Shown here piece by piece: positions 2,746-55,268 of a stretch of 64,000 nucleotides of DNA. The position numbers were made by a program, and so were the translations under genes. The notes under the pieces are model-generated. The model was not told where the DNA came from. It worked only from the letters and a program-made list of their open reading frames with translations, and made no database searches. This DNA comes from Puniceicoccales bacterium (lineage in GTDB: Bacteria > Verrucomicrobiota > Verrucomicrobiia > Opitutales > LL51). Within the stretch, counting starts at the first letter, position 1. Each line of letters starts with the position of its first letter. Location: positions 2,983-66,982 of the forward strand of contig JAITAG010000039.1 in assembly GCA_031284265.1 (NCBI GenBank). Direction: 5' to 3'.

Positions 2746-2777
2746 TATTGGGAAATAGCATTCATGATTTTGTGCAG

Positions 2778-4052: not shown

Positions 4053-4061
4053 TCTTGTAGG

Positions 4062-5445: not shown

Positions 5446-6111
5446 TCACAGAGCAAAGCGCTTTTGGACATGGGTGCAAATTTTTTCCGCAATCGTTTCC
5501 ACTGGAAGGGTTGCATCAACTGTAAAAAATCTCGCCGGTTCTTCCGCCGCTAATTGCAAATATTTTTCGCGGACACGCCTAAAAAATTCAGTCGGTTCAT
5601 TTTCGATGCGATCTTTTTGTTCCTTTCGCCCCTGGAGTCGTTTGAGGGCAAGATCGACGTCAATATCAAGCAAAATAGTTAGATCCGGAACGCATTCACC
5701 AATGGCAAAATGGTTTAATTGGTGAACAATTTTTTCAAAAAGTTTACGCGCTGCACCCTGGTAAGCCGTAGATGAATCGAAAAAACGGTCGCAAATTACC
5801 CAGATACTATTGTAAATTGTCGGTAAAATAAGCTCGCGGACAAGTTGGGCTCGGCTTGCCTCAAATAGTAAAAGTTCCGTCTCAGCACACATATTACATG
5901 CATCCGGGTCGTGCTGCAAAAGATGGCGAATTTGTTCGCCAATATACGTGTTACCTGGTTCGCGAAAGGTAACGGAATCGATATCTTTTGATGAAAGAAA
6001 TGTCCGTAAATATTGAATTTGCGTTGACTTTCCCGTCCCTTCAATGCCCTCGAAGGATATAATTTTTCCCAGCATGGACCTAGGAAATAGCGATACATCT
6101 AGAGGGAACAA
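5446..6111 (-). CDS. tmk: thymidylate kinase
   Basis: P-loop 'FEGIEGTGKSTQ' and the DRF motif 'CDRFFDSS'. It is adjacent to holB, the classic tmk-holB arrangement. Confidence 0.9.
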   Translation of the reverse strand: MFPLDVSLFPRSMLGKIISFEGIEGTGKSTQIQYLRTFLSSKDIDSVTFREPGNTYIGEQIRHLLQHDPDACNMCAETELLLFEASRAQLVRELILPTIYNSIWVICDRFFDSSTAYQGAARKLFEKIVHQLNHFAIGECVPDLTILLDIDVDLALKRLQGRKEQKDRIENEPTEFFRRVREKYLQLAAEEPARFFTVDATLPVETIAEKICTHVQKRFAL

Positions 6112-6248
6112 GAAAAATTGAAGGCGATAAGTAATTTATTTTACCATTGACTACTTTTCCCTGATCATTGAACTGTCAGCCATGGATAGTGTAAATGTTT
6201 CTTTTTCGAGTTTGAATAGGTTTATTATTATTTTTTCGCAATTAAACC

Positions 6249-8064: not shown

Positions 8065-8894
8065 ATGGCATACAGGCATACAGGCATACAGGAAAAAGTA
8101 AAAGTAAGATCAAATCTTTCACTTTAGTTGAAATTGTCTTTACCATTTCCATCATCGGCATTTTACTGGCCATACTTTTGCCGGCGATGAGTGCCATAAA
8201 GTTGAGCGCACAGAAAGTAAGAGACGTCTCCAATCTCAAAAAAATCGCCGAAGCCTGGCGTGAGTATTCCATCAATCGTAGCTACGGAAAAATGCCTATA
8301 TCAGAAGAAAAATATGGTACACATTTTATACAGCTTTTGTCTGGTTGTGGTGAAAATTTTGACACGGGAGCGAAAGCGGGGCGTGTCGATGGCTGCATCT
8401 TGAATGATCCCTATGTTTATGTTTCTCCTGGCGATAAATATGCGTCACCAATACAAAATGAAACCATCGGGAGATTGACGCAGGATGGTGCCTGGTATTG
8501 GAGCTATCCATTAAAATTAGTTTCCAATGGACTGGGACCTGGATCTGAAATTTTTAGCTATTGTTTGGCCTGGGGTATCGATCCAAGTGCTTCCCTCGAT
8601 ACGACACCGCTAGGCTTTACCCGCGGCCTAAAAGAAAATGGCTACTGGGACGAAAAATATGGCCTCTATGGTTCAAAAGGTGGCTATGTGGTCTTCTGCG
8701 ATGGCCACACAACCTGGTTCGACGGCAGTAAACCGGCGAAATTTCTCAAATGGGACCGGTCGGGATATACCAATAATATCAGGGAAACGCTTGCCAAAGA
8801 TGTACTTATCACCTGTGGATATAACGTCAGAAATAATGTTAGAGGAACCGATAATTCACTCCTCGTAACCCACCATTTCGGCCTCGCAGAATGA
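8065..8894 (+). CDS. prepilin-type N-terminal cleavage/methylation-domain protein (pseudopilin-like, 'FCDGH' C-terminal motif); frame broken between ATG and leader motif
   Basis: The frame open from 8055 encodes '..KSKSKIKSFTLVEIVFTISIIGILLAILLP..' but has no ATG/GTG/TTG before TTG 8178. ATG 8065 is in another frame and stops at 8125. Deleting one 8-nt repeat unit would fuse ATG 8065 to the pilin frame. Confidence 0.7.
8068..8091 (+). repeat. octanucleotide tandem repeat (GCATACAG)x3 directly after ATG 8065
   Basis: Read directly as atg-GCATACAG-GCATACAG-GCATACAG-gaaaaag. Confidence 0.95.
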
Positions 8895-10552: not shown

Positions 10553-10891
10553 AATATGGCAACGTAACAGAGAATAGGGGTAAAGAAGACATGGGCTAAG
10601 TAAAGCTTATTTTTGAAATTTTTCAGAATAATTGGAGCATAAAAATACTCGGCGATAGGGGAAGATGTCTAAGGCTAGGTGATTTTTATGGAAATGCGAT
10701 GCATGGCGGAGAAATGGATGAGTTGGTCAGATTTCGCAATGCGTTGGTTGGATTGGCAAATATATTTAAAAATTTGAAATTTCCAAAAATTAATAGCAAG
10801 AAAAAGTAATGTCTTCCAAATGATCGATGCCATGGAAAAACATGGCTTGAGGCAGCTTTGCCGTTGAACTAAAAGCCATGGAAAAGCGGAA

Positions 10892-10922
10892 TAAAAAAAC
10901 TTCCCAGAAATGGGAAGTTTTT
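10892..10922 (-). terminator. rho-independent terminator downstream of the ATP/ADP translocase gene
   Basis: Minus strand reads GGAAAAACTTCCCAtttcTGGGAAGTTTTTTT, a stem followed by a U-tract, 23 nt after the stop at 10945. Confidence 0.7.
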
Positions 10923-10944
10923 CCAAGAAAAGATAAAAATGAAA

Positions 10945-12468
10945 TTATTTTGCCGATTTTTCGGAGATGGCTTCCACCCGACGGCTCAGGGCTTTGACGG
11001 AAAGTATCCATAGGGCACAAATGCCGATGAAGATGGTAAATGTGTAGGGCGCAATCGTGAAGTAATTGGCTCCGGGAATGAGCAGGAGTAGGGATTGAAT
11101 CCAGGCTCCACCGGCCTTGCCGAAACGTCCACCGACCACTTCCACAACGGCCTTGCCCTTAACTTTCATATCTTCGTCGAGGGGAATGTAAGCCATTTCC
11201 TTCGTTAGATCGAATAGGGCATATTTGACGGCCTTTGAAATGGCGACTACCAGCGCGCCGAATATGACCGCGCAGAATAGGGGAGTCGTCGCGAAGGATT
11301 GTAGCAGTGTGGCCAAATTCTCTCGGAATAGAACAAAAATGAAAAACGAAGAGCCCAGTAGGAATAGCATGAGTGGCGTCGCAAGGGCTGCCGTAAACCA
11401 GCGGCAATTGCGAAGAATGTTACCGCCAATGATGAGCATGACCATTGATGCGATGCCGCCGTAGAAGGTAAATTGATTCATGAACGTATTGTAGGCATTG
11501 GGATCGGAATACTGCATTCCCAATTGCTTTTTCCAAAGGCCTTCCACTAGATTGACACTGATACCATAGCATACGACCAGCGCCACGATGAGACCCAGGT
11601 AGGGGGACGTGAAAATGACTTTAAAACTTTGTAGGAGAGGCATTTTTTTCTTACCCTTTCCCGTATTGCCGGGAAGTTCCGGCTTGTCGTAGAAGCGCTT
11701 ATCGGTGAGCACATATCGATAAATCCAGCGGTAAATGCCCATGGCAATGAGTCCTAGGACAACGACGATCCCCATCATATATTTCAGGGAAATTTCCCAG
11801 GCGTCGACGCCGGCGGGAACTTTCGTACGAATATCGGAACACCATTCGCCGACTTTACCCTCCAATAGAACGGATATTTGGGCCATGAGTGCAAAGAACG
11901 CATACATTCGCTTAGCTTCGGAAGTTTTTGTGATTTGGTTAGCAAATTGCCAAAAGGACAGCGATAGCAGCGCCGATCCCCAGATTTCTGCCAAAATATA
12001 AAAAAGGGAATAGGACCAATTTCCAACGATGGCAATGGGCCAATGGAGGAAACCCGGAGCGGCTTCTCGCCAATTGGCTATGGTTTGGGGAGAGAAATGC
12101 AATAAGTCCAGATGGGGATAGATAAAAAATGCAAAGCAGCCGAAGAAGAGAATAAACGGCGTCAATGTCACATAGAATAGATGTTCATTGGTGAAAATAT
12201 TACTCGCCTTGGCATAGAGGAGCATGAAGATAATTGCCGCCGGCGCAACACAGTACCCTTTCAGAAACGGGATAACCTCCGCATCGGATCCTGGGCCCGT
12301 AACGATAAGCGAATCTTTAATGTTCCTCAAACAGGTGTAGTTAAAAAGAATACAAAAGAACATAAATCCCATGGGGATTGCTTTTTTGAGTTCGTACACA
12401 TAGAGTGGGAAAAAGATGCGTCGCAATTTTCCAAACTCTTGACCATTTCCTTGATTTATATCAGCCAT
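10945..12468 (-). CDS. tlc: ATP/ADP antiporter (nucleotide transport protein, Tlc/Npt family, TC 2.A.12)
   Basis: The N-terminus 'FGKLRRIFFPLYVYELKKAIPMGFMFFCILFNYTCLRNIKDSLIVT' closely mirrors the chlamydial Npt1 / rickettsial Tlc N-terminus. About 12 TM segments, 507 aa. Confidence 0.9.
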   Translation of the reverse strand: MADINQGNGQEFGKLRRIFFPLYVYELKKAIPMGFMFFCILFNYTCLRNIKDSLIVTGPGSDAEVIPFLKGYCVAPAAIIFMLLYAKASNIFTNEHLFYVTLTPFILFFGCFAFFIYPHLDLLHFSPQTIANWREAAPGFLHWPIAIVGNWSYSLFYILAEIWGSALLSLSFWQFANQITKTSEAKRMYAFFALMAQISVLLEGKVGEWCSDIRTKVPAGVDAWEISLKYMMGIVVVLGLIAMGIYRWIYRYVLTDKRFYDKPELPGNTGKGKKKMPLLQSFKVIFTSPYLGLIVALVVCYGISVNLVEGLWKKQLGMQYSDPNAYNTFMNQFTFYGGIASMVMLIIGGNILRNCRWFTAALATPLMLFLLGSSFFIFVLFRENLATLLQSFATTPLFCAVIFGALVVAISKAVKYALFDLTKEMAYIPLDEDMKVKGKAVVEVVGGRFGKAGGAWIQSLLLLIPGANYFTIAPYTFTIFIGICALWILSVKALSRRVEAISEKSAK

Positions 12469-12725
12469 AACTTACCTCTAGTTATTGAATGTTACATTAA
12501 CTCATTAATTAAACGTTAAGAGTCAAATACGTTTCTTTAGTATACAGTACTTCATTATTAGACAAGTTATTTTTTTAATTAATTATAATAGTACCCCCTT
12601 TGGGGTTTGTGTATGGATCAATAAACTAAAAAATATAATAAAAAATAATTATTTTCTTAAAAAATACTTTACATCGTAAAAATAATCAATAATTTATCAA
12701 ACTGTAGTTTAATTAAAATAAGCGT

Positions 12726-14018
12726 ATGAAAAACAGTAATAGAATAAAAATAGTATCGGCAATGATTGCGGGTACTTTGGGTGCTTCTTTCGTGGGACAA
12801 ATGGCGTTGGGGTGGCCCTGGAGTTGGTTCCGGAATAGGCCCCATATCGAAGCTAATCCTAGTCCGGATAATGAACAGCTTGTAGGTGATTCGTCAACGG
12901 AGAAAATTTCGATGTCTACAGACGAAGAAACGGAAGATACTGCATTGACTAGTAAGGAAGAGTATTTGGAAGATGCTTTGAAAGCAGGAAAAGTTCAAAT
13001 ATTTATGGATGGAAAAACGCAAATTTTTGTGTTGCTCAATGATGAAAACAAGCTATGTTTTTTACCTTTAAAAGATAAGGAAAAGTTTATTCAAGAGTTT
13101 GATGCAAATTCAATTAAAGATGATTGTTGCATGATCCTTGGAGGCATAGGGTTCTCATTGATTTTCAGTCGTGTCCAAGCGAGAGAGCAAATGGCATTTT
13201 ATGGATGCGATGTGTATGGAAAGCTTCTTAAACGCATTTTGGAAGCAGGAAATAATTTGCCTCAAAGGGAAAGGTATTTGGAAGATGCTTTGGCTGCAGG
13301 AGAAGTTCACATATTTACAGATGAAAAAGCGCACGCTGTTGTATGGGTCGACAGTGAAGGAAATCCATGTTTTTTACCTTTAAAAGATAAAACAGAATTT
13401 AAAAAGTTTAATAAAGATTTAATTGAAGATTTAATTGAAGATGATTATTGCCATGTCCTTCCCAGCCAACTGCTAGCACACCTTGCAGATAGGGACGAAA
13501 TGCAACAGCAAACGAAATTCTATGGAGCCGATGTGAATGAAAAGTTTTATAAACGCATCGTAAAAAGAAAATCTGATTTGGACAAAAAATTTAGTACAAG
13601 CAAATCGCAATGCCTAATGATTTTGAAGGATGATAAATGGAATGCGGTTTTGGTTGCTTTTAACTGGAATACGGGAAAATTGATGCCGCTTATAAATGGC
13701 ACAATGGGATCAGAATGTGAACGCGCATATGAAGTAAAACTTCCCCATGCAATTTACAACAAAATAGTTCTCCTTTTCAAGGTTATCCCAGATGCTTGTA
13801 TGATATACGATTGGAAAGCAAAGGCATTCAAAGTTGTGAAATGGAGCGTTGGCATAGCAGCAGCAAGTGCCAAGGATTTCGGCGGAAGGGCTTCGGAAAG
13901 TGCTAGAGATCTCGGTGGAAGAGCTTGGGAAGGTGTCAAGAGTCTCGGCGGAAGGGCTTGGAAAAAAGCTTGGGAAACTGCCAGGAATTTTACTGCAGTG
14001 AATCCTATTGCTGATTAA
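12726..14018 (+). CDS. orphan signal-peptide protein with two ~104-aa internal repeats and a C-terminal (D/S)LGGRAW x3 motif
   Basis: N-terminal 'IKIVSAMIAGTLGASFVGQMALG'. A 312-bp periodicity links 12962 to 13274 ('YLEDAL.AG.V.IF.D....CFLPLKDK..F'). No family recognised. Confidence 0.6.
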   Translation: MKNSNRIKIVSAMIAGTLGASFVGQMALGWPWSWFRNRPHIEANPSPDNEQLVGDSSTEKISMSTDEETEDTALTSKEEYLEDALKAGKVQIFMDGKTQIFVLLNDENKLCFLPLKDKEKFIQEFDANSIKDDCCMILGGIGFSLIFSRVQAREQMAFYGCDVYGKLLKRILEAGNNLPQRERYLEDALAAGEVHIFTDEKAHAVVWVDSEGNPCFLPLKDKTEFKKFNKDLIEDLIEDDYCHVLPSQLLAHLADRDEMQQQTKFYGADVNEKFYKRIVKRKSDLDKKFSTSKSQCLMILKDDKWNAVLVAFNWNTGKLMPLINGTMGSECERAYEVKLPHAIYNKIVLLFKVIPDACMIYDWKAKAFKVVKWSVGIAAASAKDFGGRASESARDLGGRAWEGVKSLGGRAWKKAWETARNFTAVNPIAD

Positions 14019-20576: not shown

Positions 20577-22970
20577 ATGAAAGTAAGTTTAAGTTGGCTA
20601 AGACGATTTGTCGATTTACGGGATGTGCCCGAGGGTATTGGAGAAACATTTGTAAAAGTTGGATTTGAAGTAGAATCGGTTACCCGCAAAGAATTTGCGG
20701 AGAATGATTGGGTCGTTGTGGGGAAAATACTTGACTTTAAAAAACATCCCGATTCGGATTATCTCAATGTTTGCCAGGTTGATGTCGGCGATGGAAGCAT
20801 TCGGCAAATTGTCTGCGGTGCCAAAAATTTCAAACAAAACGATTACGTTCCGGTGGCCCTACCGGGAGCCCTACTGCCCGGCGCCGTAAAAATAAAAAAA
20901 TCAAAACTTCGCGGAGTAGAATCGGAAGGAATGATGTGTAGCAGCCGCGAATTGGGCCTAGGAAATGATCAAGCGGGCTTACTTATTCTGGAAAAAGAAT
21001 GGCCGTTGGGTACGAAAATTCACGATATTTTCAAGGATAGCGATGTTATTTTTGAACTGGAGTTGACGGCCAATCGCGGCGATGCACTCAGTCACTACGG
21101 TGTTGCCCGTGAGCTCGCAGCCTGGTATAATTTGCCATTGCGGCCCATTGCCGTACCGCCAATCGAAGAAAATTTTCCAAAAAATAATTTAGGCGATGAT
21201 TTAGCGATCCGCGTTGAATCCCAAAATTGTGAATTCTATTCGGCGATCGTTCTAAAAAACGTAAAAATTGGAGAGAGCGTAGATTGGATTCGCCGTGATT
21301 TGGAGGCGGTTGGCATTGCCGTGGTGAACAATGTTGTGGACATTACAAATTGGGTGATGTTGGCCTATGGGCAACCGCTCCACGCCTTCGATCGCGCAAA
21401 AATCGGAAAAACAATCATTGTTCGTGGAGCTAGGCGGGGTGAAAAAATCGCCACACTCGATGGTAAGGCGCACGAAGTCGATGAAGAAATGCTATTAATT
21501 TGCGATGAAAATGGTCCCCTAGCGATTGGGGGAGTAATCGGTGGAGAGTCGACAAAAATTACGGAAACAACGGTAGAAATCGTATTGGAAAGTGCCTGTT
21601 TTACTGCCGATAGTGTGCGTAAAACTGCAAAAAAGTTGGCCATTGCCACGGACAGTGCCCATCGCTACGCACGCCACGTCGATGTGGCCCAAACGGAAAA
21701 TTTCGGAAAAATTGCCGCTCAAATGCTCATCGATCTTTGCGGAGCAGAATTGGCAGCGCCGATCAAAAAAATACCGAAACAGCCACCATCTTTAGCCCAA
21801 AAAATTGAATTGGATCCCAATTTTGTTCGAAAAGTTTTAGGCTTTTCGATCGATGACGATGACATCGCGGACCTATTGACGCGCCTACAATACACCGTCA
21901 ACCGCAGCAATCCTAGAATGTGGATTGTCGAATCGCCATCCTACCGCTGGGAAGTAACGCGGCCCATCGATCTCGTCGAAGAATGTTTGCGCATATGCGG
22001 CGTCCATAAAATTCCCGAAACTCCAATTACCGCACGAGTAACGGATCAGGAATCGCTTGCAAGCGTAAAAAAACGAAATTCAATGGTACAATTTTTAGTG
22101 GATAACGGCTTCAGTGAGTGCTACAATTACTCGCTGTGTCGCGAATCGGCTGGAGCGCTGGCGGTAGCCAATCCCCTGCTCGACGACCAAACACACCTGC
22201 GAACATCGCTAATTCCCGGATTGATCGAAAATTTTCGATACAATTTGCAAAACGATAGCCGCCATGGAAGGTTTTTTGAGTTCGGCCATGTCGTCAGAAA
22301 ATTGGATGAATCCTTCGAAGAATTCATCGCCCTCGCATTTCTAATACCCACGGAATCCCGGGATACGCACTGGAATCGTTTTCAAGAACCCACATTTTTC
22401 GACGCTAAAAATCTAATGCGTCAAATTTGGACTATGGCCGGCGACGAGCCCTTTGAACCGATGGTGAACTGTAAAAAATCCCCGTTCGAAGAAAAATATT
22501 CCGCCCAAATAGGTGATCTGGAAACAAAATCCATGGAGGCATGCGTCGGATTTTTAGAAAGTGAACGGGTAAAAGCATTTAAAATGCCACTGATTGCCGG
22601 GGAAATATTGATAAAAATTCCCCCGTTTGAGCGAAAAAACAAAAATAAAAAATATAAATCTTTCAGCCATTTTCCAACGGCAAAGCGGGATATTTCGCTC
22701 ATCGTTGACAATGACCGGCCAGCCCAGGAAATCGTCGACGGAATCAAAATAATGGTGGAAGAAATTTCGAAGGGTATTTTTTCGGGCGTTGAAATTACTA
22801 TTTTTGACATTTACCGGGGCGTAAATTTACCGAAAAATAAAAAAAGTTTGGGCTTGAGTTTGTGCTTTAGGAATGATCAAAAAACACCATCGGATCGGGA
22901 AATCGATCAAGTTTTTGGACAATTAATCGCACAAATTCGACAAAATTCTGCGTTTGAATTGCGCGGATAA
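20577..22970 (+). CDS. pheT: phenylalanine--tRNA ligase beta subunit
   Basis: N-terminal 'MKVSLSWLRRFVDL' and a tRNA-binding OB domain, with B3/4, B5 and C-terminal FDX-ACB-like regions. 797 aa. Confidence 0.9.
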   Translation: MKVSLSWLRRFVDLRDVPEGIGETFVKVGFEVESVTRKEFAENDWVVVGKILDFKKHPDSDYLNVCQVDVGDGSIRQIVCGAKNFKQNDYVPVALPGALLPGAVKIKKSKLRGVESEGMMCSSRELGLGNDQAGLLILEKEWPLGTKIHDIFKDSDVIFELELTANRGDALSHYGVARELAAWYNLPLRPIAVPPIEENFPKNNLGDDLAIRVESQNCEFYSAIVLKNVKIGESVDWIRRDLEAVGIAVVNNVVDITNWVMLAYGQPLHAFDRAKIGKTIIVRGARRGEKIATLDGKAHEVDEEMLLICDENGPLAIGGVIGGESTKITETTVEIVLESACFTADSVRKTAKKLAIATDSAHRYARHVDVAQTENFGKIAAQMLIDLCGAELAAPIKKIPKQPPSLAQKIELDPNFVRKVLGFSIDDDDIADLLTRLQYTVNRSNPRMWIVESPSYRWEVTRPIDLVEECLRICGVHKIPETPITARVTDQESLASVKKRNSMVQFLVDNGFSECYNYSLCRESAGALAVANPLLDDQTHLRTSLIPGLIENFRYNLQNDSRHGRFFEFGHVVRKLDESFEEFIALAFLIPTESRDTHWNRFQEPTFFDAKNLMRQIWTMAGDEPFEPMVNCKKSPFEEKYSAQIGDLETKSMEACVGFLESERVKAFKMPLIAGEILIKIPPFERKNKNKKYKSFSHFPTAKRDISLIVDNDRPAQEIVDGIKIMVEEISKGIFSGVEITIFDIYRGVNLPKNKKSLGLSLCFRNDQKTPSDREIDQVFGQLIAQIRQNSAFELRG

Positions 22971-45919: not shown

Positions 45920-46171
45920 ATGGCCAAGACAAAGGAAGAAGTTCGAGAACTCGTACGTGAAATTATCGCTGAAATTGCCCCTGACGAGGATATCAGTAAT
46001 TTGCAGGCTGGCGTTCCCTTGCGCGAACAGTTGGATTTGGATTCCATGGATTTTTTAGATATTGTCATGGAACTGCGCAAACAGTATTCCATCGATATTC
46101 CAGAGGCGGACTATCACCATTTGGAATCGCTCGATAGTTGTGCTGATTACTTGGTTGATAAATTTAAATAG
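45920..46171 (+). CDS. acyl-carrier-protein-like protein
   Basis: 83 aa with a phosphopantetheine-attachment context 'LDLDSMDFLDIVMEL'. Confidence 0.6.
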   Translation: MAKTKEEVRELVREIIAEIAPDEDISNLQAGVPLREQLDLDSMDFLDIVMELRKQYSIDIPEADYHHLESLDSCADYLVDKFK

Positions 46172-46366
46172 ATTTTTTGTTTTGCCTTTTGCAAATGAAC
46201 GCAATCGAAAGATAATAGACTTTATTTACCTTTTCAAATACTCCCCTCGAAGTTTGATATTTTTTTAATATATTTTTGATGAATTTTCGTCCCAAGTCAT
46301 AAAAATAGATCGCGCATTCGATTAATCTTTATCTAAATCAGCTATTTATTTTATTACGGTAGGTCT

Positions 46367-47554
46367 GTGTTATATCCCCATTTTAAATTTGAGATTACCC
46401 ATCGCGATGGATTAACGAAGGCGCGTTGTGGCCTATTGACGACACCCCATGGCGTTTTAGAAACACCAGCCTTTGTATTCTGTGCGACAAAGGGGGCGAT
46501 GAAATCGGTTACGATGCAGCAAATGGAAGAGGCCGGTGCAGAAATCATTTTATCCAATACCTATCACCTCCTCCTACAACCCGGTCCCAATCGCATCGCC
46601 ACACTCGGTGGACTTCATAAAATGCTACATTGGAATCGCCCAATGCTGACCGATTCCGGTGGATTTCAAATTTTTAGCCTCGGCCACGGTGGCATAACCA
46701 ACGAGATTAAGGGCAAACGCAATTGTATTATCCCCAAAACATTGCTCAATATCGACGAAATGGGAGCTCGTTTTCGCTCCTATGTCGATGGCCGCATATA
46801 CGATTTAATTCCGGAAAAATCCATTGAAGCTCAACAAAAATTAGGTGCAGATCTCATCCTTGTCTTGGATGAGTGTACGCCATTTCATAGTTCCAAACAA
46901 TATACAGAATGTTCCATGGAACGTAGCCATCGTTGGGCACTGCGCAGCTTTAACCAATTTGTCCAAAACAATGATCACCGCCAGGCACTTTATGGCATTG
47001 TTCAAGGTGGGATTTATGAGGATTTGCGCAAACGTAGCGGAAATTTTGTCGCTGAACAGGATTTTTTCGGGCAAGCTATAGGGGGGAGTTTGGGCGGAAA
47101 TAGGACACAAATGCACGATATTGTTGCCGTGACTTGCCAGCATATTCGTGAAGACCGGCCTACCCATTTACTGGGGATTGGTGGAATTTTTGACATTTGG
47201 AATGGCATTGCGAATGGAGTTGATACTTTTGATTGCGTCCATCCAACACGGTTAGCGCGGCACGGCGGCGCTCTGGTTTATCCAGAAAAAAACAATGGGA
47301 AAGAGTTTTTTAATCTTAAAAATGCGCGTTTTGCAGATGATTCGGAACCTATTGATCAAAATTGTTCATGTTATTGTTGCCAAAATTTTTCTCGCGCCTA
47401 TATTCATTATCTCTTTAAGGCGCATGAAATGCTCAGCGGGCAACTCTTAACGATCCATAACGTGGTATTCATGGTGCGTCTAGCAAGGGAAATTCGAAAT
47501 TTAATTAAGGATGGGTGTTTTAAAAAAGTGGTACATTTTTGTGGAAGATCCTAG
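46367..47554 (+). CDS. tgt: queuine tRNA-ribosyltransferase
   Basis: 'TDSGGFQIFSL', 'VLDECT' and the zinc site 'CSCYCCQNFSRAYIHYL'. GTG start. Confidence 0.9.
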   Translation: MLYPHFKFEITHRDGLTKARCGLLTTPHGVLETPAFVFCATKGAMKSVTMQQMEEAGAEIILSNTYHLLLQPGPNRIATLGGLHKMLHWNRPMLTDSGGFQIFSLGHGGITNEIKGKRNCIIPKTLLNIDEMGARFRSYVDGRIYDLIPEKSIEAQQKLGADLILVLDECTPFHSSKQYTECSMERSHRWALRSFNQFVQNNDHRQALYGIVQGGIYEDLRKRSGNFVAEQDFFGQAIGGSLGGNRTQMHDIVAVTCQHIREDRPTHLLGIGGIFDIWNGIANGVDTFDCVHPTRLARHGGALVYPEKNNGKEFFNLKNARFADDSEPIDQNCSCYCCQNFSRAYIHYLFKAHEMLSGQLLTIHNVVFMVRLAREIRNLIKDGCFKKVVHFCGRS

Positions 47555-48305
47555 ACTTAGGAAGGTCTGGAAACAGTTACGTTTGAAGCTAGCTGAAAGC
47601 TTCTCGTTTTTTCGTGTATTGTTAAGAGCTCGGCTCTTTCGCTGCATCGATTACTGCGGTGTTATTTTTAAATTTTATGTCAGAAACCGCAATTTTGCAC
47701 GGATAGACCTCGCCATCAGGGGTGAATATTGGCTGAATTCTCCATTCACAATTAGTAAACGTTATTTGCAACTTAAAGTAGAACCCGATGTGTATCAGTA
47801 CGGCGAAACGCCCCTGTTAACTATCGAAAAAATAGCCAAACAAATCCATACTACGGAACAGGATTGCATTTTCGAACTCGGCTGCGGAACGGGACGCTGC
47901 GCGTTTTGGCTTGCCTATTTTACGAAATGTCGCATCGTCGGTATTGAACAAATTCCTGATTTTGTTGATTTTTCTAATCAACTTGTCGAAAAAGATAGTT
48001 TTTTAGAAGGAAAGATTAATTTCATTCGGAACGATTTTCTCTCGACTGATCTCAATCCAGCAACGATCATCTATTGTTATGGAACTAAATTGACGAATGC
48101 ACAGATCGAGGCATTAATTCTTAATCTCGGTAAAACACAACCCGGAACAATCGTGATTACGGTTAGCTATTCCCTCAATGAAATCATTTCTACGAGTGAA
48201 AATCAGGCCGTTTTAGATAAATATTTCCCCATTATTTCAAAATTTGATGCCGAATTTTTCTGGGGGAAAACTACCGTATTTATTCAGAAAGTTCCATCCA
48301 TTTAA
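47511..48305 (+). CDS. class I SAM-dependent methyltransferase
   Basis: Motif I 'IFELGCGTGRCAFWLA'. It overlaps the tgt 3' end by 44 nt, and no later Met is available upstream of motif I. Confidence 0.65.
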   Translation: MGVLKKWYIFVEDPRLRKVWKQLRLKLAESFSFFRVLLRARLFRCIDYCGVIFKFYVRNRNFARIDLAIRGEYWLNSPFTISKRYLQLKVEPDVYQYGETPLLTIEKIAKQIHTTEQDCIFELGCGTGRCAFWLAYFTKCRIVGIEQIPDFVDFSNQLVEKDSFLEGKINFIRNDFLSTDLNPATIIYCYGTKLTNAQIEALILNLGKTQPGTIVITVSYSLNEIISTSENQAVLDKYFPIISKFDAEFFWGKTTVFIQKVPSI

Positions 48306-48310
48306 GATTG

Positions 48311-48602
48311 CCAAAGGGCTCCGCCCTCTGGACTCCCGCAAGGAGTCGTAGACTCCTTGACCTCCTTTTGCGGCCCAGCCCGGCGAAGTTTTCGCCAGGC
48401 TGGGCCGCAGGGGTAAACTTTTTTATCTTTTATTTTCCTTGGCCGAGGCTCATCGCGTATCGCCTCGGCCAAAAAGTTGTCCTAGTGGGCCTCAGATCCT
48501 TTTTCGGCCTGAGCCCTGGGCGTTTGCGGGGCTCAGGCCGAAAATCCAGGTCCAGGGGATGGATCCCTTGGCGGGGATTCTAAGGATACGTAGTCCTTAA
48601 GG
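48311..48602 (-). repeat. GC-rich hairpin-module mosaic, array 11 (near full length, reverse: E-D-C-I-L-H-A-B)
   Basis: CAAAGGGCtccGCCCTCTG; CAAGGAGTcgtagACTCCTTG; GGCCCAGCCCGGCG..CGCCAGGCTGGGCC (48372-48406); TTGGCCGAGGC..GCCTCGGCCAA; AAAGTTGTCCTAGTGGGCCTCAGAT; CGGCCTGAGCCC..GGGCTCAGGCCG (48505-48540); CCAGGGGATGGATCCCTTGG; CTAAGGAtacgtaGTCCTTAAG. Confidence 0.9.
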
Positions 48603-49085
48603 AATTTTCCAAGGAGTAAGGCGCGGGATCCAACGTGGGACGTTACGTTTGTAAGTATAGTAATCGTTTCCGAAACGTTTTTCCAGGCTCTTTTCTTCAA
48701 ATAGAAGAAAATAGAGCATATTACCCAATAAGAACAGCCCAAATAAGCCAAAGATAAGCCACGAATTGAGAAGTAAGGCTTCTGCAATTTGCATTATAAA
48801 CACACTTGTAATCATTGGATTTCGGACATAGGCATAGGGACCTTCAACGACTAATTTTTTAGGAGGATTCCAAGGAGCAGCCGTACCTTTACCCCGATGG
48901 GCAAAAAGCCACATGGTCCAAGCTGCCAACATCAGTCCTACCAGAAGGAGGAAAAAACCTAAAAGTGTCAAGAAAAAATGATTAGGGTTCCAGGAATAAT
49001 CTACGAAATAGAGGACAAGTGCAGGAATTGTTAGCAAAACATTGAGTGGCAGTATGACGATCGTTTTAATCCATTCTAAAATCAT
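48597..49085 (-). CDS. isoprenylcysteine carboxyl / phospholipid methyltransferase-family membrane protein
   Basis: Four or five TM helices. 'GPYAYVRNPMITSVFIMQIAEALLL' resembles the ICMT/PEMT family core. The TAA stop lies within module B of array 11. Confidence 0.6.
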   Translation of the reverse strand: MILEWIKTIVILPLNVLLTIPALVLYFVDYSWNPNHFFLTLLGFFLLLVGLMLAAWTMWLFAHRGKGTAAPWNPPKKLVVEGPYAYVRNPMITSVFIMQIAEALLLNSWLIFGLFGLFLLGNMLYFLLFEEKSLEKRFGNDYYTYKRNVPRWIPRLTPWKIP

Positions 49086-49199
49086 TTTGGAGCAAACGGA
49101 GGTATTATTAGTGGATTTTAAAAGTAAATCAAGTTTTTAGTGAACTTGAAGAAAAGTAAATTTATTTCCCTGGTAACGTTGGCAACGAATGAATAGTGC

Positions 49200-50066
49200 C
49201 TACTTTTCTAAAAAATACTGTCTTTGTTTTTCAGTAATTGGTAAACCAATCCGCTCCATTACCTTTAGCATATCTTCCCAAACCACTCGCTTCATCGCAT
49301 TTGTACTGTTACGCAGAAGATAGGAGGGGTGAAACGTAATCATTAGCGGAATGCCACAAAATTTGTGCCATTGGCCACGTACCGTTGACATTTTTCGGGT
49401 TTTATCGTAGCCTAATAAGCCGCTAACAGCCGTTGCTCCCAGCGCTACAATAACTTTTGGCCGAACGATTTCGACTTGTTCCATTAAATAGGGTAGGCAA
49501 AATTGCATTTCTTCCTGGGTCGGTGGACGATTGCCCGTTTCGCCATTCATTTCTGGACGCCAGTTCATAATATTGCCGATGTAAACCGTTTCCCGTGAAA
49601 GGCCCATCGCTCCGATAATTTTTGTCAGCAGCTGTCCTGCCCGGCCGACGAAGGGAATACCTTGGATTTCCTCATCGGCACCGGGAGCCTCACCGCAAAA
49701 GAAAATTTCCGCTTCCAGATTGCCTACGCCAAAAACTAAATTTTTTCCCGGTCGAACATGCTTTTTTAAATCCTCATTACCTAAGACACGTTCGCGTAAA
49801 TCTTCCCAATGTTCCCGTTTACTGGCAAAAACTTTTTTTGAAATAGAGAATTGTTCCAAATTTTCCATTTTACCATTTTCTTTGCCTAAGACATTAGGTA
49901 CCGGATCAAGAATAGTGAGAGACGTATTCCTTTTAATGGCAATTTTTTCGCATATAATCGGACCTTTTTCTAGGAACGCGAAATTTTCCACACCAATGGG
50001 AATGGTCATTTGGCCCTGATTTTGGAACTCTTCCAAAGCTTTGATCAATACATCTACGAGACGCAT
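49200..50066 (-). CDS. uracil-DNA glycosylase, family 4, with N-terminal extension
   Basis: 'GEAPGADEE', '[10 protein letters not shown]' and 'HPSYLLRN'. The ORF opens at 50402 but that would overlap yraN, so the start is set at 'MRLVDVL' (50066). The true start is uncertain. Confidence 0.7.
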
Positions 50067-50127
50067 CACCTTTTTTGGAATAGGATAAAAGTTATGGCTG
50101 TAAATGCATTTTATTATATTATAGAAA

Positions 50128-50520
50128 TCAAAAAAACGGGATATTCTCATAGTGAAAAATTTCAAAATTTTTTTCATCATAGGCGATTTCGATGATGTCA
50201 AAACGAAAATATTGCAAATAATTCTGACTAATATATGCTTGTAGAACAGGTTTGAGGGCATTTTTTTTCTTCTTTGTAACCGAAAAATAACCGGAAACGA
50301 GAGCGTCTTTTTGTCGCGTGCGTACCTCAACGAACACGGTAACCTCACCATCCTGAGCGATGACATCGATTTCGCCATTTTTATGGTGCCAATTTTTCTC
50401 AAGAATTTTATATTTTTTCTTTTTCTTTAAAAAATTTACCGCCAATTTTTCTCCCTCACTCCCAGTTTCCTGTTTTTGTGTCGACATTGCTTTTGGGAAA
50501 AATTCTACAAAAAAACCCAT
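50128..50520 (-). CDS. yraN: YraN-family (UPF0102) endonuclease-like protein
   Basis: 'GEKLAVNFLKKK.YKILEKNW....GEIDVIAQDGEVTVFVEVRTR' matches the YraN pattern. Confidence 0.75.
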   Translation of the reverse strand: MGFFVEFFPKAMSTQKQETGSEGEKLAVNFLKKKKKYKILEKNWHHKNGEIDVIAQDGEVTVFVEVRTRQKDALVSGYFSVTKKKKNALKPVLQAYISQNYLQYFRFDIIEIAYDEKNFEIFHYENIPFF

Positions 50521-50917
50521 AATTTAAAATTTAAAAATATGATCGATTCTATAATTTATGATAAAAACTTTTCATTATATCTTCGTCTTTTTAAATTCAT
50601 AAGTCATGTCAATACCCAAGATATATAAAATCTTCCCCGCAATATTGGAGTCTTATCGTGTAAAACTATTTTTGCTGTATTTACATGTCATTCATAATTT
50701 ATCGAAAGCAATTACTTGTATCATAGTCTTCCACGCATGGGTTAGCTTATGAAATAAACATTCATTAGACCATTTAGAGAAAAGGCATAATATTTCAATC
50801 CATGGCTTTTAAGCCATAGAATAGTAAATTGAGTATCCCAATTGTTACGACAAATTCAACAGTGGGTGTTGAGGTATCTTACTACTCGGAATGATAAATA
50901 TTTAATTTTTTTCATTC

Positions 50918-51014
50918 GGAGCCGGGGATGAGATTCGAACTCACGACCCACGCATTACGAATGCGTTGCTCTACCAGCTGAGCTACCCCGGCAAAATTTA
51001 TCGGAATTTATATT
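50918..51014 (-). repeat. 97-bp perfect direct repeat, copy 1 (entire tRNA-Thr-CGT plus 22 nt of its 5' flank)
   Basis: Identical base for base to 53641-53737 (GGAGCCGGGGATGAG...GGCAAAATTTATCGGAATTTATATT). Confidence 0.95.
50920..50992 (-). tRNA. tRNA-Thr (CGT), copy 1
   Basis: The reverse complement folds with acceptor GCCGGGG/CCCCGGC, anticodon arm ACGCA-TTCGTAA-TGCGT and T-arm GTGAG-TTCGAAT-CTCAT. CCA is not encoded. Confidence 0.9.
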
Positions 51015-51381
51015 GGCCAATAAAGCAAAATCTTTTATGGAATATGCGGTTATTCCGATGGTGAAGAGTGCGGTCTGTTCTAAATTATTGGAATTGGTTC
51101 CGGATAATAAAGTGTGCGACGAATTTTTGGAAGCGCTGGAAAATAGGAATTCAAACATCTGGAAATGCTTAGAATTTATAGTTGCATACAACATAAATAA
51201 TTTTATAAAAGATTGCCTTAAAGCAAAGTTGAATCCTGATTCGCCTATTGAAAAATTTACGGAAGGTCTAACAGGAATTCTAACGAAACCTGTATTCGAT
51301 GCATTCAACGTAGGAGACGATAAATGGTTGGAGCTGGATTTCTTATTATGTGATTATATCCAGGAGAGTCCCCATCTCTAA
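51013..51381 (+). CDS. hypothetical protein (no recognisable family)
   Basis: 122-aa ORF starting at TTG 51013 or ATG 51037, at the edge of the tRNA repeat. No motif recognised. Confidence 0.35.
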   Translation: MANKAKSFMEYAVIPMVKSAVCSKLLELVPDNKVCDEFLEALENRNSNIWKCLEFIVAYNINNFIKDCLKAKLNPDSPIEKFTEGLTGILTKPVFDAFNVGDDKWLELDFLLCDYIQESPHL

Positions 51382-51668
51382 TATCAGCAGGCAAAGTTAG
51401 AGATTTGAGGGGTTTTTGCGCAATAGTACTCAAAGTTTTGTATGATAGAAACGTACGAGAATTGCTTTCTAATTTTTATGATAGGACTTTGTCAGTTGTT
51501 TTGAATATGGCCGCTAAAATACGTAATTCTCTAAAAATGAAAAACCAGCGTTAAAGGAAATCTTTAGGAAAATACCATAAATATAGCTTTTCGGTAGCGG
51601 AAATTATGTAAAAGTAGTAAAAATTTTGACGTAATTAAAAAAATTGATAAAATGGCCAACTAAACTGC

Positions 51669-53048
51669 TTATTCGCCTTGTTTTCCATTGAAAAATAACG
51701 CCGTTTCTTCCACAATTACTTTCCTCAAGCCGATCAATCCGGTAAGATTGGCAATGGCCATTAATCCCGTTGCAATATCCGCTATGGTAAATATGATATC
51801 AATTTTAAAAAATGGACCGATAATGACAAAAAAAAGAAACAGAATTTTGTATGCGGCAATTGCTCCCGTTCCCCAAAGATACTGGACACACTTTTCGCCA
51901 TAATAATTCCATCCGATAATTGTAGTAAAGGCAAAAAATAGGATACCCAAATCGACGACATACTTTCCCAATGTGGCATTTTTCAGTCCCAATCCGAAGG
52001 CATGGGAAGTAATAAGCGCCCCATCGATGGTATATTGGGGTGTAAAAATAGCGGTTTCTTTCGATGTAATGATGAGCACAAGGGCAGTCATCGTACAAAC
52101 GATAATGGAAAAAAATGCCCCTATCATGGAAACTAATCCCTGTTTTACGGGGGAATCGGTTTTGGCCGCTGCGGCAGCGATGGCAGCGCTACCCAAGCCC
52201 GATTCATGGGAAAATATGCCGCGGCTTATTCCCAATTTCATCGTCGTCATAAATGTGATGCCCATGCTGCCACCGAGAATAGCTTCCGGAGAAAATGCTC
52301 CGCGTACGATGAGATAGATCGCGTGGGGGATTAAATTTGCTTTCATGATGAGTAAAACGATGGCTGCGCCGATATAAAAAATACTCATGAATGGGACTAT
52401 TTTTTCCGAAACGTAGGCGATCCGCTGTATGCCGCCAATGGTAACCACGGCAACAATGATCCCCAAAAGTATGGCCGTTAAAACTAGGGGAATGCCTAGG
52501 GAATTGGCGGCAGCGGCGGCTATGGAATTACTTTGTGTCCACGTACCAATGCCGATGAGGGCCGTACCCATTCCGAAGAATGCAAATAATTTAGCCAGCC
52601 ATTTGTTTCCCAATCCCATTTCGATGTAGTACATGGGGCCACCGGCGATTTTGCCATCGCTACCCATTTGGCGGTACTTGATCGCCAGCAAGCCTTCGGC
52701 GTATTTCGCAGCCATTCCGAAGAAAGCGGCTATCCACATCCAAAATATGGCTCCCGGTCCTCCCGTTGTGACGGCCAACGCGACACCGACGATATTTCCC
52801 GTTCCCAGCGTTGCCGATAGGGCCGCACAAAAGGAAGCAAAATTAGAAATATCGCCTTTGCCATCCTGGTATTTTTTGCCATCAATGACATATTTTATAG
52901 CCAATTTCAAGCGGGAAATTTGTAAAAATTTCAATTTAAAGGAAAAATAGATACTGATGCCGAGAAGAGCCGTAATCAGAGGGAGCCCCCAAATGGTACG
53001 ATTGATGGCCATCACAAGGTCATGGATTATTTCTGAGTAGTTGTTCAT
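51669..53048 (-). CDS. alanine/glycine:cation symporter (AGCS family)
   Basis: About 11 TM helices. 'GPGAIFWMWIAAFFGMAAKYAEGLLAIKYR' and 'GISRGIFSHESGLGSAAIAAAAAKT' are typical AGCS blocks. Confidence 0.85.
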   Translation of the reverse strand: MNNYSEIIHDLVMAINRTIWGLPLITALLGISIYFSFKLKFLQISRLKLAIKYVIDGKKYQDGKGDISNFASFCAALSATLGTGNIVGVALAVTTGGPGAIFWMWIAAFFGMAAKYAEGLLAIKYRQMGSDGKIAGGPMYYIEMGLGNKWLAKLFAFFGMGTALIGIGTWTQSNSIAAAAANSLGIPLVLTAILLGIIVAVVTIGGIQRIAYVSEKIVPFMSIFYIGAAIVLLIMKANLIPHAIYLIVRGAFSPEAILGGSMGITFMTTMKLGISRGIFSHESGLGSAAIAAAAAKTDSPVKQGLVSMIGAFFSIIVCTMTALVLIITSKETAIFTPQYTIDGALITSHAFGLGLKNATLGKYVVDLGILFFAFTTIIGWNYYGEKCVQYLWGTGAIAAYKILFLFFVIIGPFFKIDIIFTIADIATGLMAIANLTGLIGLRKVIVEETALFFNGKQGE

Positions 53049-53243
53049 CTATTTATTTCACCTTCCGGCTGAACCTTTAAGTATTTTTATAAAAAAACAA
53101 GTATTTTTCGGGATAGATTCGGAGTTCACGGAAGATTGCGAATCGGGCATAACCATTGGAAACGGACCGCTTCCAAACTTTTTTTTGTACTAAAACAAAA
53201 TTGGAAGCAACAATGAAACATCAAAACAAGTAAATTATCGCCA

Positions 53244-53609
53244 TTGCGGACGAATGATCAAAAGAACAAATTAAGAGGTATAGATATACTCATCTGTCCC
53301 CATCACAGCAGTATGAGTGAAAACTCCTACCGCTGGCGAGGAGAATTAAATCGCCTAAGAACGATTTCCATTACTTCAAGTGATCCTCGAAGTGGTGAAA
53401 GCAATATTCCAGAACGATCGTTTATGTTTGATGCAATGGCGTTGTTCGATAATAATAGGAGATACCCACACCGAGTCACCTGGTATTCAAAATTGCGTAA
53501 AAGGGTTTGGGAGTACCAAACGGATACCTGGATGTTTTGTAATGTCCTGTACGGATATAGCCTATCACGTAAAGATAGACGAGGGTGGCGACATTTATAT
53601 GATTCCTAG
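53244..53609 (+). CDS. hypothetical ORF of doubtful coding status
   Basis: 121-aa ORF that is W/R-rich with no motif and no obvious RBS. It ends 34 nt before the second tRNA-Thr copy. Confidence 0.2.
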   Translation: MRTNDQKNKLRGIDILICPHHSSMSENSYRWRGELNRLRTISITSSDPRSGESNIPERSFMFDAMALFDNNRRYPHRVTWYSKLRKRVWEYQTDTWMFCNVLYGYSLSRKDRRGWRHLYDS

Positions 53610-53640
53610 AGGTGGGTCTTGGCGATAATTGACGTTATCT

Positions 53641-53737
53641 GGAGCCGGGGATGAGATTCGAACTCACGACCCACGCATTACGAATGCGTTGCTCTACCAG
53701 CTGAGCTACCCCGGCAAAATTTATCGGAATTTATATT
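53641..53737 (-). repeat. 97-bp perfect direct repeat, copy 2
   Basis: Identical to 50918-51014. Confidence 0.95.
53643..53715 (-). tRNA. tRNA-Thr (CGT), copy 2
   Basis: Sequence identical to 50920-50992. Confidence 0.9.
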
Positions 53738-53814
53738 TCCTAAAAAATTGCAAAATTCCCAATCTCGTGGACAATTTTCATCTAAAAAAATCCAAATTCA
53801 CTGTAAAATAACGG

Positions 53815-53887
53815 AGCCGACTGTCAGACTTGAACTGACGACCGTCCGCTTACAAGGCGGGTGCTCTACCAGCTGAGCTAAGTCGGC
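53815..53887 (-). tRNA. tRNA-Thr (TGT)
   Basis: The reverse complement GCCGACTTAGCTCAGCTGGTAGAGCACCCGCCTTGTAAGCGGACGGTCGTCAGTTCAAGTCTGACAGTCGGCT has the anticodon loop CTTGTAA. Confidence 0.85.
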
Positions 53888-53889
53888 AA

Positions 53890-53964
53890 TGGTGGGTCGA
53901 CTGGGATTCGAACCCAGAACCAATGGCTTAAAAGGCCACTGCTCTACCGTTGAGCTACCAACCC
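53890..53964 (-). tRNA. tRNA-Lys (TTT)
   Basis: The reverse complement folds with acceptor GGGTTGG/TCGACCC (two G-U pairs), anticodon arm GTGGC-CTTTTAA-GCCAT and T-arm CTGGG-TTCGAAT-CCCAG. CCA is encoded. Confidence 0.85.
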
Positions 53965-54144
53965 CAACCCGTCCTAGCACGCTAATCGGCCAAATCTGTC
54001 TGTCAACTTCCTTCTCAATGAATTTTAGCAGTAATATGCTAAAGATCCTCCTTTATCGGACATTTTCTGATTCGATCCAGTTCTCCGAAATGACCTTTGA
54101 ATTTCAAATTTTTGAATTTTTAATTTGAAAATCTTCCCTACCCA

Positions 54145-54921
54145 TCACTTTCTCAGCCGATCGCCGTAGATCGTCAGTGCCAGCATAATTAAAATAAATA
54201 CTCCCGAAGGAAAAATGACCTGCCAAGGCGAGGTTGTCATAAAATTCGCACCCTCCGCAATTAAAATCCCTAACGAACTCTTCGGCGGCTGTATGCCAAT
54301 TCCCAAAAAACTCAAAAATGATTCCAATGCAATTACCCCCGGTAATGTGATGATAAAACAAACAGTAATTATTCCCATAATATTAGGTAATACGTGCTTC
54401 CACATAATCTTTGCTTCCTCTTCCCCTAATCCTCTCGCTACTTGAATATAGCCGCTCTCTTTTATCTTTAATACCTCCGCACGGATAATCCGTGCCGTTG
54501 TCATCCATTCCACGATGCTGATCGCAAAAAATAAGACACAAACATGTTTCCCAAAAACCATCATGAGTAAAATAACGATGAGTGTCAAAGGAATGGGATA
54601 TAAAATATCTACCATGCGCATCAGTATTGAATCAATCTTACCTCCATAATATCCTGCAGTCATCCCGTAAATAACCCCAAAGCTGACTGTCAATAATGTC
54701 GTCAAAAGGCCAATCGATAGCGAAATGTAACAGGCATAAATGACGCGGGAAAACAAGTCCCTACCCAATCGATCCGTGCCAAACCAATGATCCCAATTGG
54801 GCGCCGTAGTCCCCAATGTGATATTTTGTTGATAGTAAGGATAGCGATAAGCCCCTACAAATGCCATTAACATAACGAAAATAAAACAAAAAATATACCT
54901 TAAGAAGTGTTCCCTTTTCAC
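54145..54921 (-). CDS. ABC transporter permease, OppC/DppC family (no partner genes adjacent)
   Basis: 'WFGTDRLGRDLFSRVIYA' and the EAA-like loop 'YIQVARGLGEEEAKIMWKHVLPN'. Six TM helices. Confidence 0.8.
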   Translation of the reverse strand: MKREHFLRYIFCFIFVMLMAFVGAYRYPYYQQNITLGTTAPNWDHWFGTDRLGRDLFSRVIYACYISLSIGLLTTLLTVSFGVIYGMTAGYYGGKIDSILMRMVDILYPIPLTLIVILLMMVFGKHVCVLFFAISIVEWMTTARIIRAEVLKIKESGYIQVARGLGEEEAKIMWKHVLPNIMGIITVCFIITLPGVIALESFLSFLGIGIQPPKSSLGILIAEGANFMTTSPWQVIFPSGVFILIMLALTIYGDRLRK

Positions 54922-54971
54922 AAAAAAAGAGTTTAACTTCCTAAAAGTTTCATGATTACTGTCAACTTCAA

Positions 54972-55166
54972 AGTCAGGTGAAGAATTCGCCTGACTGGGC
55001 CGCAGAGGTAAGAACTTTTATTTTTCTTGGCCGAGGCTTTGCCACAGGCGGGGCCTCCGGACCATGTTCTGGCCTTGTCCCCGGGCGTTACCCAAGGACA
55101 AGGCCAGAACCCCAGGTCCAGGGGATGGATCCTCTGGCGGGGATCCAAGGGCGAGAAGCCCTTGGG
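54972..55166 (-). repeat. GC-rich hairpin-module mosaic, array 12 (C-I-H-A-B, partly degenerate)
   Basis: GTCAGGtGaagaattCGCCTGAC; TTGGCCGAGGC...; GGCCTTGTCC..GGACAAGGCC (55071-55105); CCAGGGGATGGATCCTCTGG; CCAAGGGCgagaaGCCCTTGG. Confidence 0.85.
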
Positions 55167-55268
55167 CAGGAATCTCATGGCTGAGGACGAATGGAGAAGG
55201 ATTCTTCCTTTCCCAGACCATCATTAAAATAATGCTTTACGGTATACCAATTTTGTTAGCATCGTCAC

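Follow-up and report, generated by a model that had tools for sequence, protein, structure and literature searches.

How did one complete tRNA-Thr(CGT) gene come to stand twice, in identical copies, on the two sides of a transporter gene? This question is raised by a locus in a 64,000-nucleotide stretch of contig JAITAG010000039.1 from an uncultured, endosymbiont-like Puniceicoccales bacterium; we call this stretch the window. In the window, a perfect direct repeat of 97 bp, formed of the tRNA gene and its 22-nt leader, brackets about 2.6 kb of DNA with a gene for an amino-acid symporter of the AGCS family. The original prediction, made from the sequence before any database search, proposed a recent insertion-duplication or recombination event that delivered a nutrient transporter. 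Here, we compared the locus with five related loci from metagenome-assembled genomes (MAGs), L030 to L034, which were found by using the neighbouring permease gene as an anchor, and we analysed the genes between the repeats. The locus arose by a rearrangement in the lineage of the window, at a variable spot linked to a tRNA, and the event is of a broadly familiar kind. We read it as a duplication of tRNA-Thr(CGT) and its leader at a recombination-prone site, in which a circle made from a DNA fragment of the same clade would have entered by a single crossover, and we give this reading about an even chance of being correct.

Two copies of tRNA-Thr(CGT)

Positions 50918-51014 and 53641-53737 of the window are identical at 97 of 97 bases. 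Base-by-base extension meets a mismatch immediately beyond each end, which reproduces the extent, the identity and the abrupt ends that had been described for this repeat. Chance cannot account for an exact repeat of 97 nt within 64 kb. Read in the direction of the tRNA, the repeat is composed of the 22-nt leader, the 73-nt tRNA-Thr(CGT) gene and the dinucleotide CC. Both copies lie on the minus strand. In copy 1 (50918-51014), the leader, the tRNA and CC correspond to segments 50993-51014, 50920-50992 and 50918-50919, respectively. In copy 2 (53641-53737), they correspond to segments 53716-53737, 53643-53715 and 53641-53642. ARAGORN and Infernal identify tRNA-Thr(CGT) on the minus strand in both copies (50918/50920-50992 and 53640/53643-53715), and its Infernal score against RF00005 is 69.6 bits, compared with a gathering score of 29. 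Each copy has a canonical cloverleaf with anticodon CGT and is identical, at 75 of 75 positions, to the single-copy orthologues of L030 to L034. Being identical and canonical, both copies are predicted to work.

The two bases that had been taken for 3' flank are present in the repeat, but they are really the first two bases of an encoded CCA. In copy 2, base 53640 completes the triplet (TCCA). In copy 1, CC is followed by G and not by A (TCCG). The interval between the repeats begins 1 nt past the CCA of copy 2, so that it abuts the 3' end of the tRNA. Encoded CCA is not uniform across the tRNAs of the window genome. CCG follows tRNA-Thr(TGT), copy 1 of tRNA-Thr(CGT) and the single tRNA-Thr(CGT) of L034, and CCA is encoded for copy 2, for tRNA-Lys(TTT) and for the tRNA-Thr(CGT) of the other four relatives. 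At the other end of the gene, the original prediction had noticed a -10-like GATAAAT. The leader in which it lies is conserved, but a promoter and terminator scan has no site there, and the promoter-like sites of the region are not above those of shuffled sequence.

Each tRNA copy retains one ancestral neighbour. Copy 2 has the ancestral upstream context. It is located 97 nt downstream of tRNA-Thr(TGT) (53813-53887, minus strand), and the spacer between them can be aligned over its whole length with the Thr(TGT)-Thr(CGT) spacers of L030 to L034. Copy 1 has the ancestral downstream context and is located 397 nt upstream of YraN. The interval has one novel junction, at the repeat edge. Next to tRNA-Thr(TGT) is tRNA-Lys(TTT) (53890-53964, minus strand). 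These two conserved upstream members of the array were found by ARAGORN and Infernal, as expected from the tRNA cluster that had been reported beyond copy 2.

Comparison with related loci

In all five relatives, the permease, tRNA-Lys, tRNA-Thr(TGT) and one full tRNA-Thr(CGT) are found in the same order. YraN and then UDG follow in four of the five (L030, L031, L033 and L034), and PEMT comes after UDG in L031 and L033 only. None of the five has an AGCS gene at the tRNA-Thr(CGT) site, and none has a second full copy of this tRNA. With both absent from these relatives, the AGCS interval and the second tRNA copy are specific to the lineage of the window. The original prediction had suggested looking in related genomes for a single tRNA-Thr(CGT) with no insert. 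The finding of one full tRNA-Thr(CGT) and no AGCS gene at five of five loci supports lineage-specific insertion-duplication or recombination as the right class of explanation.

In all comparisons between orthologues, conservation goes no further than the tRNA 3' end. In L030 and L034, YraN follows after 243 nt and 299 nt, respectively, and these sites can be described as 'empty'. Genes of 401, 539 and 54 amino acid residues precede YraN in L031, and genes of 407 and 177 residues precede it in L033. In L032, the tRNA is followed by a 463-residue gene with a resemblance to metallo-beta-lactamases (MBL-like), a 215-residue gene and more. Since the content is different in each genome, the site 3' of tRNA-Thr(CGT) is a hot spot of turnover. 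No match to integrase or phage families was found among the scanned variable genes of L031, L032 and L033.

L032 has a repeat of its own. Positions 3488-3551 and 5813-5876 of this locus form a direct repeat of 64 nt (63/64 identical), which brackets the MBL-like and 215-residue genes over 2,325 bp. Each copy is made up of the last 40 nt of tRNA-Thr(CGT), beginning in the anticodon loop, and 24 nt of 3' flank, and there is no integrase. This second example shows that insertion with duplication of the tRNA anchor has occurred more than once in the clade, with differing repeat boundaries. The other side of the tRNA array is variable too, as judged from L030, in which extra genes (10874-12766) are found between the permease and tRNA-Lys. 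They include near-tandem duplicates of a prepilin-type (N_methyl) gene, with 300 nt at 92% and 192 nt at 88% identity, and a homologue of these is located at 8106-8882 of the window.

Age of the duplication

The event had been called recent, given the zero divergence between the two copies. This argument fails when the relatives are considered. The tRNA with its CC, 75 of the 97 nt, is invariant across the window and the five relatives, six genomes in all, while adjacent coding DNA between these genomes is 75-81% identical. The leader is identical to that of the window at 20/22 positions in L031 and L033, 19/22 in L032, 15/22 in L030 and 14/22 in L034, so that three relatives keep 19 or 20 of its 22 positions. 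At a leader divergence like that of L031, identity at 22/22 is expected about 1 time in 8 (0.91^22, calculated). The repeated unit is the part that purifying selection keeps unchanged, and for this reason zero divergence cannot date the duplication. The two leader copies of the window (22/22) resemble each other slightly more than the members of any orthologue pair do. This suggests that the duplication is younger than the separation from these relatives, which is itself old. Caution is needed with a perfect repeat that combines a tRNA with a conserved leader, as it says almost nothing on age; these 75 nt are shared without a change by species with genes that differ at a fifth of their bases.

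Gene remnants between the repeats

Two reading frames accompany the AGCS gene in the interval, one of 122 residues (ORF122), which had been called an orphan, and one of 121 residues (ORF121, 53244-53609), which had been called doubtful. Both are what is left of longer genes after truncation. For ORF122, an exhaustive HMMER search yielded only two homologues, the better of which (P0277) has 432 residues. The P0277-like relic extends over 51010-51545 on the plus strand. Residues 240-369 of P0277 correspond to 51010-51369 and residues 370-423 to 51384-51545, with a frameshift between the two segments, and the N-terminal ~240 residues are missing. The PGAP annotation has at this position a protein of 114 residues that starts from the ATG at 51037 (MDR2812679.1). 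ORF122 is thus the disrupted C-terminal 40% of a longer gene. The homology to P0277 starts at 51010-51015, and the truncation coincides with the repeat edge at 51014/51015. With the homology beginning exactly there, this edge is a true breakpoint. We also considered whether the duplicated unit extends ~25 nt beyond the 22-nt leader, as an 11-mer shared with the L031 spacer (p=0.0025) could indicate. This idea was rejected, because the stretch is P0277-homologous coding sequence (codons A-K-S-F) up to the repeat edge.

The second relic (53238-53579, plus strand) aligns to about residues 180-375 of proteins of 368-485 residues. Both of its ends are missing, with ~180-290 residues lost from the N-terminus and ~75-120 from the C-terminus. 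All eight members of the MBL-like family (P0266-P0273), which is found only in Puniceicoccales MAGs, align to the relic with their middle part, and PGAP annotates no protein at this position. The full-length MBL-like gene of L032 (3550-4941, minus strand) is located 22 nt from the tRNA 3' end, on the opposite strand to the tRNA. The relic has the same position and orientation beside tRNA-Thr(CGT) as the L032 gene, and the two are 81.6% identical over 103 nt, an orthologue-like level. Members of the family have a weak metallo-beta-lactamase match at the N-terminus, a match to the PADLOC model LmuA (8e-14) and matches to RTasMBL models, and the family may be a lone defence-type effector. It also matches a PHROG family described as 'tail protein' (2.8e-8). 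Because the gene behind one of its relics is native to the same site in L032, the interval is a mosaic and not a self-contained cassette that was delivered.

The Logan assembly of sequencing run SRR14710909, an independent one, has a contig of 2,582 bp that is identical to 50985-53668 of the window except for a deletion of 102 bp. The P0277-like relic has its stop codon in the missing segment (51358-51459), together with a hairpin and a run of T after it, and the deletion yields a fused reading frame of 121 residues (P0253). This deletion is a further sign of decay of the relic. The contig stops within both repeat copies, at a depth of 30 nt in one and 28 nt in the other, as would be expected from a short-k graph at a true repeat with two different continuations on each side. 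The same graph also fits an arrangement L-R-D plus a circle R-I. In the case of an assembly artefact or a mixed population, there would be a single chromosomal tRNA-Thr(CGT), and the 2.6-kb segment would be located elsewhere, in part of the population, or on a small circle that shares the tRNA. The window comes from a metagenome-assembled contig, and its population is not clonal, as is shown by the 102-bp variant. Despite this, we regard an assembly artefact or a mixed population as very improbable. The 72.8-kb contig passes through both copies, each copy keeps one ancestral neighbour as in a real insertion, the MBL-like relic is placed beside copy 2 as in L032, and a circle of 2.7 kb with no replication gene is not plausible as a separate replicon.

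The remnants could also be the product of rearrangement in situ, with no circle. The tRNA unit would have been copied by a tandem or segmental duplication starting at -22, or a 97-bp unit would have been inserted by templated repair, and deletions would have followed. Both genes of the interval other than AGCS are truncated, deletions are certain here from an MBL-like relic with neither of its ends, and the 102-bp deletion is segregating. The genome is rich in dispersed repeats, and synteny with the relatives is lost at ~55224. However, this route requires at least two events, one of which ends exactly at the tRNA 3' end. A tandem segmental duplication has its whole unit twice, but the interval is single-copy, with no second copy of any part of it within the 64-kb window, and no N-terminal part of the P0277-like gene is found across copy 1. 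We therefore judge rearrangement in situ to be distinctly unlikely, and we keep the integration of a clade fragment as the preferred reading.

The AGCS gene

The only intact gene between the repeats, AGCS (51669-53048, minus strand; MDR2812680.1), is co-directional with the tRNA array. Its product of 459 residues matches PF01235 with 409.5 bits over profile positions 5-383 of 392. AGCS proteins (TC 2.A.25) are sodium/proton:alanine/glycine symporters, and the gene product is a putative alanine/glycine:cation symporter. An Rfam scan found no glycine riboswitch or other element upstream of it.

The composition of the gene is native-like. Its GC content is 0.451, its GC content at third codon positions (GC3) is 0.491 and its codon score is 0.086, within the range of the window genes (0.426±0.028, 0.419±0.048 and 0.076±0.023, respectively). 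By identity, the nearest named homologues belong to Alphaproteobacteria and Holosporaceae MAGs (71-74%). In a neighbour-joining tree, which has no support values, the window AGCS pairs with P0002, and this pair stands next to further sequences from Puniceicoccales, within a clade in which Puniceicoccales and Holosporaceae are mixed. An older transfer of AGCS between Puniceicoccales and Holosporaceae is possible from this topology. On the contig of P0002 (L023), the AGCS gene has 76% nucleotide identity to the window gene, and its neighbour is TsaD, not a tRNA. Dispersed repeats of the kind typical of this clade flank the L023 gene. Another AGCS gene (P0241), with 96% identity, is found on a contig of 14,581 bp. 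No cluster of TGT, YraN, UDG, PEMT, permease, HisRS or ORF122 has a member on a contig of that length, an indirect sign that P0241 may have a different context. A search with the AGCS protein in a collection of metagenome contigs that does not include this project gave matches of 58% identity or less only.

Recent transfer from Holosporaceae or Alphaproteobacteria as the immediate origin of the gene was rejected on the basis of the tree, the composition and L023. The phylogeny and the codon and GC analysis that the original prediction had recommended speak against a recent foreign origin, and its statement that a nutrient transporter was delivered is not supported. With native composition and a 76% copy at another locus of a clade contig, AGCS has the look of a long-term resident of the clade that has changed its place, and not of a new arrival from outside. 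In two loci of the Alphaproteobacteria MAGs that were looked up, L024 (312-3149) and L025 (6597-8940), AGCS is located 10 nt downstream of a TLC ATP/ADP translocase gene. Such a translocase is also found in L030, where the gene starts at 20780-20789 and runs off the locus, and L031 has a run of five ankyrin-repeat genes (585-7272). TLC ATP/ADP translocases and ankyrin-repeat genes are hallmarks of an intracellular lifestyle.

The lack of an integrase had been reported for this locus, and it stands. Pfam and PHROGs scans found no integrase or recombinase in the interval or in 40.5-63.7 kb of the window. Taken with the native composition, this bears on another alternative, a decayed integrase-mediated islet. 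The attP of such an element would have carried the full tRNA-Thr(CGT), perhaps as a result of aberrant excision, and its integrase would have been lost or supplied in trans. The insertion site, on the 3' side of a tRNA gene, with content that varies among relatives, is in line with this, and the L032 repeat is att-like and starts in the anticodon loop; it brackets the gene family of which the window keeps a relic. The matches of this family to defence models (PADLOC LmuA, RTasMBL) are typical of island cargo. The islet is nevertheless only a possible explanation, and we consider it somewhat unlikely. Neither an integrase nor an excisionase was found in the scanned variable segments of the window, L031, L032 and L033 or in the 40.5-63.7 kb region, the repeat comprises the whole tRNA and its 5' leader and not a 3' segment alone, a cargo gene is cut exactly at the repeat edge, the composition is native-like, and viral-contig scans found no viral relatives.

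Genome context

The contig of the window (72,769 bp, 'MAG: Puniceicoccales bacterium') runs through both repeat copies. The order of genes is PEMT, UDG, YraN, copy 1, P0277-like relic, AGCS, MBL-like relic, copy 2, tRNA-Thr(TGT), tRNA-Lys and an OppC-type permease, and all are on the minus strand except the two relics. The conserved left-hand neighbour of the locus is YraN/UPF0102 (50128-50520, minus strand). Beyond it are UDG (49200-50066, minus strand) and, beyond UDG, PEMT (48597-49085, minus strand). To the right of the tRNA array, the conserved neighbour is the OppC-type ABC permease (54145-54921, minus strand; MDR2812681.1, 242 residues), and beyond it is a HisRS/HisZ gene (55269-56552, plus strand). 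The NCBI name of the latter is ATP phosphoribosyltransferase regulatory subunit (HisZ), and its JGI name is histidyl-tRNA synthetase. In a scan anchored on HisRS, which covered 11 related MAGs, synteny upstream of HisRS stops at ~55224 of the window in all of them, and none has Thr or Lys tRNAs near HisRS. In more distant relatives (L008 and L010), the HisRS-like gene adjoins a pair of tRNA-Ser genes, while the tRNA-Ser pair of the window is at 9.3-9.6 kb, which indicates rearrangement on a large scale.

A modular, partly palindromic intergenic repeat family is found at a dozen or more sites in the 64 kb. Two diverged copies (48306-48610 and 54925-55268) bracket the whole 6.6-kb tRNA/AGCS region, and the synteny break at ~55224 adjoins one of them. 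Rfam has no family for these two copies, which are the ones inside the scanned region 46000-58000. Further copies are located near 2.5, 2.7, 4.1-4.6, 7.6-7.8, 9.1-9.3, 28.8, 30.6-30.8, 38.8-38.9, 41.3, 42.2, 44.2-44.5 and 62.0-62.2 kb. The family is also found in L030 to L034, in L023, which carries four copies of this dispersed repeat of the clade, and in several short contigs from related MAGs (L002-L005), where it lies at the contig ends. The Alphaproteobacteria loci do not have it.

Discussion

The simplest account of the locus starts from DNA of the same clade. A fragment carrying its own tRNA-Thr(CGT), in the order leader-tRNA-MBL...AGCS...part of the P0277-like gene, would have had its two ends, at -22 of the tRNA and inside the 432-residue gene, joined into a circle. 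The circle would then have integrated by one Campbell-type crossover within the tRNA, for which it would not need an integrase of its own. The product would be Thr(TGT)-spacer-tRNA-insert-leader-tRNA-YraN, as is seen in the window. The circular intermediate and the crossover are steps that we infer. The tRNA is the only stretch that is 100% identical between genomes with ~20-25% divergence.

Most of what is known of Campbell-type integration comes from plasmids and laboratory constructs. The window resembles it in that the product is target-insert-target with the shared homology duplicated, in that the duplicated length (97 bp, and 64 bp in L032) would be the shared stretch, and in that one novel junction is found inside the insert, where the would-be closure of the circle is 51014/51015. 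It differs in its anchor, as the use of an invariant tRNA as a natural anchor between diverged endosymbiont lineages is what we infer here.

Several points weigh against this reading. The donor arrangement (tRNA/MBL/AGCS/P0277-like) is seen in no genome. Identity of the leader at 22/22 positions needs a donor leader equal to that of the recipient, or later gene conversion. No alignment is possible between the intergenic DNA 3' of copy 1 and the sites called 'empty' in L030 and L034, and an earlier empty state of the recipient is thus not demonstrated. The anticodon loop is the classical crossover site of tRNA-targeting integrases, and the L032 repeat, which starts in this loop, leaves room for an enzyme acting in trans. 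There is also a small chance of heterogeneity or misjoining at the 97-bp repeat.

A wider form of the favoured mechanism is more speculative. The invariant tRNA-Thr(CGT) could be a portable homology anchor in the clade, with fragments that circularise and integrate by homologous recombination free of any integrase. We hold this only tentatively and consider it rather unlikely. If it were true, genes such as AGCS or the MBL-like defence genes would be moved in this way, both inside single lineages and across lineages whose divergence (20-25%) otherwise prevents recombination, and the window, with its 97-bp anchor, and L032, with its 64-bp anchor, would be two independent products of one tRNA-anchored process.

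The locus can also be compared with tRNA-linked islands of the tyrosine-integrase type, in which attL and attR are formed from the 3' part of the tRNA gene. As in these islands, the insertion in the window is directly 3' of a tRNA, its direct repeats contain tRNA sequence, relatives lack the interval, and this tRNA marks a hot spot of variation throughout the clade. The classical geometry, from the anticodon loop to the 3' end, is found in L032 only. In contrast to such islands, the repeat of the window comprises the entire tRNA and 22 nt of 5' leader, which upholds the earlier remark that it is not a 3' att fragment. The interval has no integrase and no atypical composition, and it consists of 2.6 kb with one intact gene and two relics.

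The locus also resembles the microcin H47 island of Escherichia coli. In the available text of two reports, it is a small island flanked by direct repeats that moves or is deleted by recombination between them, with mobility shown experimentally (PMC3191183, PMC5426353), and it is described as encoding no site-specific recombinase (PMC5426353). The window likewise has a small islet within direct repeats, and recombination between repeats would be its expected route of loss. The two differ in that mobility of the microcin island is experimental and the window is known from its sequence alone, and in that the repeats of the island are not described as whole tRNA genes in the text available (PMC3191183, PMC5426353).

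The finding is a modest and explainable rearrangement, not a new system. The site 3' of tRNA-Thr(CGT) is one of turnover in a symbiont-like and poorly known group of Verrucomicrobiota, with relatives that have ATP/ADP translocase and ankyrin genes. In the lineage of the window, this turnover put an amino-acid importer between two tRNA copies that are predicted to work. Should genes really move by a tRNA-anchored route free of any integrase, reduced genomes with few mobile-element enzymes would have a simple means of continuing to shuffle them.

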